Shown: positions 48,184 through 48,813 of the stretch, piece by piece
Numbering within the stretch: position 1 is the stretch's first letter
Layout: each line of letters opens with the position of its first letter
Sequence record: PQ569687.1
Origin: Klebsiella phage vB_Kpn_K54_rec1
Length of the DNA stretch: 64,000 nt
Direction: 5' to 3' (one strand)
Made by a program: the position numbers and the translations under genes
Notes under the pieces: generated by a model
What the model was told of the DNA's origin: nothing
What the model saw: only the letters and a program-made list of their open reading frames with translations
Database searches by the model: none

Positions 48184-48258
48184 GGTGGGAAGGGAGGGAT
48201 TTGAACCCATCGTCTCTTCGCTTAAAAGGCGAATGCCTGACCGCTCGGCTACCTACCC
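48184..48258 (-). tRNA. tRNA-Lys (TTT), weak T-stem
   Basis: Acceptor GGGTAGG/CCTTCCC with one T-T mismatch, anticodon loop CTTTTAA. T-stem has only 3 clean pairs. Confidence 0.45.
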
Positions 48259-48695
48259 GATAATCTTTCTTCTGCGTGATGCTCCCTGTGACAATTCGCA
48301 CAAAGAATCATACACTTCTTCAATTCTGCTGCCAGCTTCTCTTTTGCTGGCGTCCCAAGTAGCATCTTAGCGATATTGAAGTCTTTCGATTCTGCATCTA
48401 CATGATGGAAGTCAAGAGCAGCAAAGCACTTGTCATATCCACAAGATGAGCAGCAGAGATTTTCTCCAAACACTTCCTTGATTATCTCAAGATTCCTTTC
48501 TTTTCTGCGTTTATTCTCACAACGTTTGCACAAAGGTTTATATTTCATTTTGTCTTTGTACTTACCTATCGTGTAGAACTCGCTTATTAGATACGTTGTT
48601 GCGCACCCATTGCAATATTTGGCGGAGGAAGGGAGAGTTGAACTCCCAAGGCACTCATCATGCTCGGCTGTTTTCAAAACAGTTTTCGTCGCCAT
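48249..48695 (-). CDS. HNH homing endonuclease whose 5' end overlaps the tRNA-Ser(TGA) gene
   Basis: ATG (MATKTV) lies inside the tRNA D-region. The tRNA acceptor strand GGAGGAA serves as its RBS. Twin CxxC (KYCNGC...CKRC) and a CANCHREHH HNH core. Confidence 0.65.
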   Translation of the reverse strand: MATKTVLKTAEHDECLGSSTLPSSAKYCNGCATTYLISEFYTIGKYKDKMKYKPLCKRCENKRRKERNLEIIKEVFGENLCCSSCGYDKCFAALDFHHVDAESKDFNIAKMLLGTPAKEKLAAELKKCMILCANCHREHHAEERLSGR

Positions 48696-48710
48696 TCGAT
48701 TTGTTCCTCC
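48620..48710 (-). tRNA. tRNA-Ser (TGA), type II, degenerate D-arm, overlapped by the HNH start
   Basis: Acceptor GGAGGAA/TTCCTCC, anticodon arm ACTGT-TTTGAAA-ACAGC, T-arm GGGAG-TTCAACT-CTCCC, 91 nt. Confidence 0.5.
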
Positions 48711-48719
48711 TTGTTGTTT

Positions 48720-48813
48720 TGGCGGAAGATGCAAGACTTGAACTCGCACACCCCTTTCGGAGCTACTGTCTCTTTAGCAAAGAGATCCCTTACCTGATTA
48801 GGGTTAATCTTCC
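48720..48813 (-). tRNA. tRNA-Ser (GCT), type II
   Basis: Acceptor GGAAGAT/ATCTTCC, anticodon arm TCTCT-TTGCTAA-AGAGA, 21-nt variable arm. Confidence 0.6.

Follow-up and report, generated by a model that had tools for sequence, protein, structure and literature searches.

We have analysed a 64,000-nucleotide (nt) stretch of Klebsiella phage vB_Kpn_K54_rec1 (PQ569687.1; hereafter the window), in which an HNH endonuclease gene directly adjoins a transfer RNA (tRNA) gene, tRNA-Ser(UGA), and appears, from comparison with its relatives, to take its translation start from within that tRNA gene. The phage is a Klebsiella myovirus of the genus Mydovirus (Vequintavirinae); a test kilobase of the window is 100% identical to vB_Kpl_K54lambda1.1.1 and 98.8% identical to phage DP. 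The pair lies in a minus-strand cluster of 22 tRNA genes called by ARAGORN, and every feature of the locus is on that strand (Table 1). Read in the direction of the genes, tRNA-Ser(GCT) is followed by a 9-nt spacer, tRNA-Ser(UGA), the HNH open reading frame (ORF) and tRNA-Lys, the HNH gene being wedged between tRNA-Ser(UGA) and tRNA-Lys with no spacer at either end. tRNA-Ser(UGA), with G1 at 48710 and the anticodon TGA at 48674-48676, has a long class II variable arm; its D stem is shifted and of 3 bp, and its CCA (48620-48622) is encoded. It encodes the first 25 codons of the HNH ORF as read from a D-loop codon, residues 26-148 constituting the conserved Zn-knuckle and HNH protein, and the stop codon TAG coincides with nt 8-10 of tRNA-Lys. 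The overlap between tRNA and coding sequence (CDS) is already visible in automated GenBank annotation: a tRNA-Ser overlapping the HNH CDS is annotated in the record of phage DP, and the CDS start in the records of DP, K54_rec2 and PcCB7V is the D-loop codon.

Table 1. Positions of the tRNA-HNH locus and of stop codons supplied by tRNA genes (window coordinates unless a contig is named).
Feature	Position	Strand	Basis or remark
tRNA-Ser(GCT), upstream neighbour	48720-48813	-	ARAGORN; Rfam tRNA, 36.8 bits
A-rich 9-nt spacer AAACAACAA	48711-48719	-	sequence
tRNA-Ser(UGA), 'type A' phage family, 91 nt	48620-48710	-	minimum free energy fold is the cloverleaf; covariation
Putative Shine-Dalgarno sequence AAGGAGGAA	48704-48712	-	sequence; 48704-48710 is the tRNA acceptor 5' strand
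Likeliest HNH start, ATG in D loop, tRNA nt 16-18	48693-48695	-	TTG in relatives
Alternative in-frame TTG, U33-U34-G35, anticodon loop	48675-48677	-	without Shine-Dalgarno sequence
HNH endonuclease CDS, 148 amino acids plus stop	48249-48695	-	PHROG 2255; ratio of nonsynonymous to synonymous substitution rates (dN/dS); AlphaFold2 (AF2)
tRNA-Lys(UUU), downstream neighbour	48183-48258	-	ARAGORN
459-nt cassette replacing 253 nt of HNH-less sister phages	48259-48717	-	comparison with Seu621
Stops on nt 8-10 of a tRNA	48249-48251; 48804-48806; L009 1232-1234; L025 ~879-881; L028 1444-1446		

The fusion of tRNA and HNH gene was found in at least six diverged lineages, comprising the group of the window (DP, KpS11, Ro1 and KPP-1), the Klebsiella phage K23PH08C2, the Certrevirus phages PcCB7V and PBES02, and two metagenomic contigs, L028 and L029. 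The cassette is present at 96-100% identity in 11 phage records, representing 10 distinct phages, and in more diverged copies as well. All six lineages keep the fused junction and an open frame through the tRNA. The residues conserved across the protein family, K-Y-C-N-G-C, begin at codon AAA (48618-48620), the first base of which is A76 of the tRNA, and the Zn knuckle thus lies directly 3' of the tRNA, as the original prediction had it. That prediction also held that the HNH gene could start only within the tRNA, and this is borne out: between the tRNA CCA and the N-terminal CxxC, no in-frame ATG, GTG or TTG is present in any of the six fused lineages, nor is an in-frame ATT, ATC, ATA or CTG present in the window. 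The only in-frame candidates shared by the six lineages are an [A/T]TG in the D loop and a TTG in the anticodon loop, the two codons that had been pointed out. Because the fused junction is common to every lineage, the start would have been inside the tRNA gene throughout their history. The sole insertion or deletion at the junction, in L028 (GCC ACA AAG TAT TGC versus GCC AAA TAT TGC in the window), is of 3 nt and keeps the frame.

The D-loop codon is the most likely start because it is the only candidate with a Shine-Dalgarno sequence. The last two A's of the spacer lengthen the five-base GGAGG core of the acceptor strand to AAGGAGG, and AAGGAGG followed by 10 nt and then ATG or TTG is found in all fused lineages, a distance inside the 5-13 nt of bacterial initiation regions. 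The duplex of AAGGAGG with the 3' end of 16S rRNA is predicted at -11.4 kcal/mol, the strongest among four cluster ORFs tested. The acceptor sequence GGAGGAA had been proposed as the Shine-Dalgarno sequence, and its placement holds; the stated spacing of 7 nt does not, since 8 nt separate GGAGGAA from the D-loop ATG and 10 nt separate it from the GGAGG core. Nor is there anything special about the ATG itself, as the D-loop codon is TTG in five of the six fused lineages and TTG is also the commonest codon at this position in HNH-less copies of the tRNA. By comparative inference, the HNH gene would lack a start of its own and must borrow one from the tRNA gene, where the acceptor 5' strand would be the only Shine-Dalgarno sequence available.

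A promoter scan revealed nothing convincing directly upstream in the window. The contig L028 (Logan SRR30962893, from an AT-rich uncultured phage) has a good sigma-70-type promoter at 930-990, TTGACT-17-TACATT, approximately 30 nt 5' of the tRNA, a position that would make the tRNA of this fused unit the 5' leader of the transcript.

Several observations weigh against the upstream element's being a tRNA. ARAGORN makes no call for 48620-48710, and the best Rfam match is to tRNA-Sec (30.5 bits, E = 0.008), below the gathering threshold of 47. GenBank records of relatives label the element tRNA-Ser, with those of phiEa21-4 and phiEa104 flagging a possible pseudogene (tRNAscan 26.3). The canonical core is also not followed, with C8 in place of U8, G14 paired with C21, and A-A at both 10-25 and 11-24. 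Phage T5 supplies a further point of the same kind: its tRNA-Ser2(GGA) has the same D-arm and, according to the T5 record, did not become an amber suppressor after an anticodon swap, whereas Ser1 and Ser3 did. These features would suit a reading in which the HNH gene starts as described above but the tRNA is instead a conserved tRNA-like element, serving as a decoy, processing signal, landing pad or mRNA leader.

Since ARAGORN and Rfam were equivocal, covariation was investigated in an alignment of 15 distinct members of the tRNA family. In the cloverleaf, 94.7% of cells pair and 15 of 24 pairs are compensatory, with changes on both sides; none of 500 shuffles was as good, and slid controls paired in 47-56% of cells. 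All four arms covary strongly. The alignment further contains a 7-nt anticodon loop, U33, A37, a T-loop TTCRA, a class II variable arm and an encoded CCA, with the serine anticodon UGA in 14 of the 15 sequences and GGA in the remaining one (L021), as also in T5 Ser2, which is outside the alignment. With BLAST and a pattern scan, family members were detected in Vequintavirinae (Hena1, DU_PP_I), Stephanstirmvirinae (phiWec179) and Ounavirinae (the phiEa21-4 group), as well as in T5 (tRNA-Ser2) and in several contigs of uncultured viruses. Nearly all copies are situated within tRNA arrays, and nearly all lack an adjoining HNH gene; in phages free of the HNH gene, the tRNA stands in register within such arrays. 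In addition, 48620-48710 is the sole tRNA-Ser(UGA) of the window and occupies the slot of a canonical 'type B' tRNA in sister phages. Combined, these results make a tRNA-like element unlikely and support a true tRNA under structural constraint, with a putative decoding role, from a tRNA-Ser family widespread in phages.

The original prediction, while correct that the tRNA folds, described its D-arm as degraded, and this part does not hold. The D-arm segment CAAATCGAWTGGCGACGAAA is near-invariant and is the most conserved part of the tRNA family; its conservation is partly ascertainment in the copies derived from the pattern scan but is seen in BLAST-derived copies too. The D stem is of 3 bp and shifted (12-23, 13-22 and 14-21), and a compensatory C-G to A-T double change within it has occurred in the fused copy of K23PH08C2 and in T5. 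Because the non-canonical D-arm and core are conserved across the family, they appear to be an unusual family trait and not decay caused by the endonuclease gene. In the T5 record (L027, NC_005859), where 6943-7036 and 6846-6935 are the Ser2 and Ser1 entries, Ser2(GGA) is of the same D-arm family as the window tRNA, and Ser1(UGA) is similar to the type B tRNA found in Mydovirus phages that lack the HNH gene.

Initiation at the D-loop codon itself faces several difficulties. In the tRNA fold the Shine-Dalgarno sequence is paired with UUCCUCC in the 7-bp acceptor stem; the 10 nt from GGAGG to the start are at the long end of the usual spacing; and five of the six fused lineages would require a UUG start. 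Furthermore, the HNH-less tRNAs most closely related to the fused ones, those of DU_PP_I and Hena1, likewise have the GGAGG acceptor, the TTG or ATG codon and an open frame. As these tRNAs share all three features, the features would have pre-existed and are not demonstrably adapted to the HNH gene. GGAGG is present in all six fused tRNA copies versus 2 of 12 unfused copies, and an in-frame stop in none of the six versus 6 of 12; the fused tRNAs are closely related and the nearest unfused ones are alike, and these counts therefore give no independent support to an adaptation of the Shine-Dalgarno sequence, the start or the frame, which we rejected. The GGAGG acceptor, start codon and stop-free frame look like pre-existing features that let the fusion survive.

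We consider it quite unlikely that translation starts elsewhere, either at the anticodon-loop UUG or in an unconventional way, for example from a processed transcript or at a non-canonical codon. All fused lineages have this UUG in frame and unchanged, and it lies in a loop with a lower opening cost, 9.2 kcal/mol. However, nothing resembling a Shine-Dalgarno sequence precedes it, and U33 and the anticodon already account for its invariance. No near-cognate codon is in frame near the junction. The downstream ATG at 48546-48548 (M50) is ATC or ACT in relatives and its use would drop the first conserved CxxC. Other candidates were likewise discarded: a GTG at 48747-48749 and a TTG inside tRNA-Ser(GCT) are missing from the other fused lineages, and the out-of-frame ATGs of the variable arm run into a stop codon.

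In the HNH part of the fusion, amino acid identity falls to 56-58% across the fused lineages, as against 92-100% identity of the tRNA part. The ORF after the CCA is intact in every fused lineage, at 123-124 codons, and dN/dS, where computable, is 0.03-0.09, with the proportion of synonymous differences (pS) at 0.64-0.97 and saturated except in the closest pair. C82, C85, H97, H98, C132, C135, H136 and H140 show no variation in 15 relatives, and neither the eight zinc-ligand cysteines nor the catalytic residues H-H...H vary. Given such strong purifying selection, the HNH protein must be translated in these phages. Residues 22-144 match PHROG 2255, 'HNH endonuclease', with E = 3e-33, and in the AF2 model mean pLDDT (predicted local distance difference test) is 84.9, with values below 50 for residues 1-22 and of approximately 90 or more for most of the rest. 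It is thus very unlikely that the gene is a decaying, untranslated remnant which lost its start on fusion to the tRNA, an interpretation that would suit the lack of a start of its own, the Pfam HNH match (PF01844) at 15.9 bits, under the cut-off of 21.4, and the common degeneration of homing endonuclease genes. Finally, that an assembly or sequencing error conceals a canonical start, for which nothing was found in favour, is vanishingly improbable, as the same junction is present in 11 deposited records from 10 phages, in diverged copies and in separate metagenomic contigs.

A profile of the protein family matches the Zn-knuckle region of Hpy99I, a beta-beta-alpha-metal enzyme (PDB 3FC3), with E = 1.4e-4. 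A single-sequence search of the PDB gave no match, and the best Foldseek matches in the PDB, to Hpy99I, the Cap5 HNH and the Gme HNH, are weak, all with E of 0.1 or worse. Hpy99I is the nearest solved relative and the top Foldseek match but very distant (14% identity, E = 0.1), and the similarity is uninformative on target specificity. We take the gene to be a predicted free-standing HNH (beta-beta-alpha-metal) endonuclease gene of a family that resides in phage tRNA clusters.

All other relatives of the protein begin M-x(1-5)-C-x-x-C with a start of their own, including those in the T5-like phage EH2, Salmonella phage Arash and many metagenomic proteins, and the other family members have their own Shine-Dalgarno sequence and start just after a tRNA. 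The Hena1 homologue, for instance, begins MEKLCSKC and has its own Shine-Dalgarno sequence and an ATG 16 nt past a tRNA of the same type. Because relatives start in this way, the 25-residue leader MATKTVLKTAEHDECLGSSTLPSSA appears to be an add-on, tRNA sequence read as protein; its residues are predicted to be disordered and occur in no other family member. Between lineages the leader shows the substitutions H12R and C15R, which correspond to opposite sides of a single A-U to G-C exchange in the variable-arm stem; changes in the leader peptide would accordingly follow the pairing rules of the RNA. We also considered a direct origin of the fusion by simple deletion from a gene of the Hena1 type and rejected it, the Hena1 protein being 34% identical and grouping with a second paralogue in the window.

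The tRNA and the HNH gene travel together in a single cassette, which swaps with an HNH-less allele. In the sister phage Seu621, which is 99.0% identical to the window down to 48718 and 99.2% identical from 48258 on (flanks 99.0-99.9%), the corresponding 253 nt are made up of two spacers flanking a quite different tRNA-Ser(UGA), that of type B, and no HNH gene is present. The comparison with relatives lacking the endonuclease gene that had been suggested thus yields an exact HNH-less allele, and the description of the gene as a fixed insertion is refuted. The cassette extends from 2 nt beyond the 3' end of tRNA-Ser(GCT) to G1 of tRNA-Lys. In Ro1 and KPP-1 it is 96-100% identical, with the spacer AAACAACAA conserved along with it at 100%, compared with only 63% identity for the neighbouring allele of tRNA-Ser(GCT) or tRNA-Lys; the reverse pattern is seen in K23PH08C2. 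In other phages, the tRNA-HNH pair is flanked differently: by Gln and Ser(GCT), by His and Ser(GCT), or by a promoter and Asp. Presence/absence polymorphism at the site and mosaic inheritance together with the immediate flanks are hallmarks of homing genes, and the pattern fits a homing endonuclease gene with co-converted flanks, one of these flanks being a tRNA indispensable to the gene. Across 47600-49800, comparison with L023, L007 and L006 shows the tRNA cluster to be a fine-scale mosaic, in which alleles of tRNA-Ser(GCT), -Lys, -Asp and -Ser(GGA) are 53-69% identical amid segments of 96-100% identity, with breakpoints at the ends of tRNA genes.

From the anatomy of the locus, its conservation, the selection on the protein, the covariation of the tRNA and the polymorphism of the cassette we infer an initiation site, a competition between processing and translation, and a homing activity. 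The explanation which we favour overall, and regard as probable, is that ribosomes begin the HNH protein at the D-loop codon of the tRNA gene preceding it, the acceptor strand acting as Shine-Dalgarno sequence. The original proposal that tRNA sequence serves HNH initiation is upheld to this extent, by comparative inference from the junction, dN/dS and the relatives' own starts. Any translation initiation region belonging to the HNH gene itself would have been lost or would never have existed, and initiation would occur at AUG here and at UUG in most relatives, with AAGGAGG 10 nt upstream. The same RNA would then have two exclusive fates. If folded and processed, it would become a tRNA, with the Shine-Dalgarno sequence buried in the acceptor stem and 3' processing severing the ORF from its start. 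If captured by a ribosome, which would be easiest before the 3' strand of the acceptor is transcribed, it would serve as HNH mRNA. The cost of opening the ribosome-binding site (RBS) is 13.4 kcal/mol in the full transcript and 4.7 kcal/mol before the 3' acceptor strand is transcribed, a difference that suggests co-transcriptional capture. RNase P cleavage at tRNA-Lys would in addition remove the HNH stop codon, as has been proposed for T4 segB, and together these effects may keep the level of the endonuclease low, as is usual for homing endonucleases. A crude opening energy, however, does not set the HNH RBS apart from those of neighbouring ORFs as more occluded, and for this reason regulation by occlusion is not specifically supported; regulation of the HNH gene by occlusion and processing is therefore put forward as a hypothesis. 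More tentatively still, and with considerable doubt on our part, the tRNA and endonuclease may constitute one co-mobile, two-product gene, in which the tRNA would supply the Shine-Dalgarno sequence, the start and an off-switch (acceptor folding and RNase P/E) as the sole expression signals of the endonuclease and would replace a tRNA-Ser(UGA) deleted from the recipient genome by homing.

Several elements of this arrangement have precedents. The T4 gene segB encodes a GIY-YIG homing endonuclease within the T4 tRNA cluster, and its regulation was proposed to involve an RNA structure over the Shine-Dalgarno sequence and start and a tRNA-processing cut between the last sense codon and the stop (PMC2330249). 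Like the HNH gene of the window, segB is a free-standing endonuclease gene between phage tRNA genes, co-transcribed with them, and the HNH stop similarly falls within the next tRNA; SegB drives preferential inheritance of the tRNA region and flanking markers. In contrast to the window HNH gene, segB belongs to another nuclease family and has its own Shine-Dalgarno sequence and start in a dedicated hairpin outside the tRNAs, whereas here both would be part of the tRNA gene and the sequestering helix would be the acceptor stem. Homing has been demonstrated for SegB and is predicted for the HNH protein. For I-TevI, I-TevII, I-TevIII and Aeh1 mobE, a stable helix pairs with the Shine-Dalgarno sequence of the endonuclease gene and limits translation (PMC3014915). 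The likeness is in the pairing of that sequence in a stable helix; the I-Tev and mobE hairpins are dedicated and are bypassed by late promoters, whereas here the helix is that of a tRNA, with its 3' strand located past the start, such that promoter choice could not bypass it.

In T5, the HNH ORFs hegC and hegD (F-TflI and F-TflII as well as F-TflIV) are interleaved with tRNA genes as in the window, and according to the T5 record hegC, hegD and T5.069 run at their 3' ends 14-24 nt into the 5' part of the tRNA that follows. Overlap is confined to 3' ends in T5, where no heg start falls within a tRNA, unlike the arrangement in the window. A tblastn search revealed no close homologue of the window HNH in T5 itself; T5-like phages such as EH2 encode proteins 48% identical to it, between tRNAs and with their own Shine-Dalgarno sequence and ATG. 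In Salmonella phage EH2 (L024, ~300-472) an unannotated tRNA-like sequence (T-arm, acceptor 3' strand and CCA) lies directly 5' of the HNH homologue and resembles the 'tRNA-like stable RNAs' annotated in T5. In animal mitochondria, coding sequences start or end inside adjacent tRNA genes, and one transcript cannot give both products intact; the translation system there differs, having no Shine-Dalgarno sequence, and the overlaps do not involve mobile elements and are usually of a few nucleotides. Already established are endonuclease genes within the tRNA clusters of phages, overlap of 3' ends with the following tRNA, and helices that sequester an RBS. No description of a phage start codon inside a tRNA was found in the literature searched, the coverage of which was partial such that absence is no proof; what appears undescribed is a whole initiation region, Shine-Dalgarno sequence and start, within a constrained tRNA gene and conserved across genera.

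The window contains further features of a related kind. A second HNH paralogue (53878-54291, minus strand; 137 amino acids, 40% identical, PHROG 2255) begins MKLCRRC with its own GGAGG and a TTG start. In this region (53841-54291), GTTCGAATCCTTCATGCCCCACCA comes straight after the stop codon TAG of the paralogue and has the look of a tRNA 3' fragment (T-loop, acceptor 3' strand and CCA); no tool calls a tRNA in GTTCGAATCCTTCATGCCCCACCA, perhaps what is left of a tRNA that the endonuclease gene truncated. The tRNA cluster also holds a third nuclease gene of mobile type (46445-46906, minus strand), which is Endonuclease VII-like (PF02945, E = 9e-14), with its own GAGGG and a GTG start 14 nt past the CCA of tRNA-Met. 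ORFs of the tRNA clusters repeatedly stop on nt 8-10 of the next tRNA, U8-A9-G10 being TAG (or TAA) (Table 1); the conserved tRNA core would supply a ready-made stop, and RNase P cleavage would leave such mRNAs stopless. Two minus-strand sequences matched by Rfam and not called by ARAGORN, at 51088-51166 (tRNA, 34.9 bits, above the gathering threshold of 29) and 49498-49566 (tRNA-Sec, 27 bits), may be further atypical phage tRNAs or remnants. tRNA-Asn(GTT) (47974-48058, minus strand) is 85 nt long with a long variable region of approximately 14 nt, unusual for an Asn tRNA.

For annotation, pipelines that bar overlap between a CDS and a tRNA will truncate or drop genes of this type, and tRNA finders miss this tRNA family. 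If the proposed initiation within the tRNA gene is correct, one stretch of DNA would be under two types of constraint at once, tRNA maturation and mRNA function would be mutually exclusive on a single transcript, and the locus would provide a simple natural system in which ribosome binding is set against the kinetics of RNA folding and processing. Should the tRNA and endonuclease constitute a two-product gene, each transcript would be partitioned between tRNA and endonuclease mRNA, and the dosage of the endonuclease would depend on how ribosome loading and tRNA processing are balanced in infected cells.

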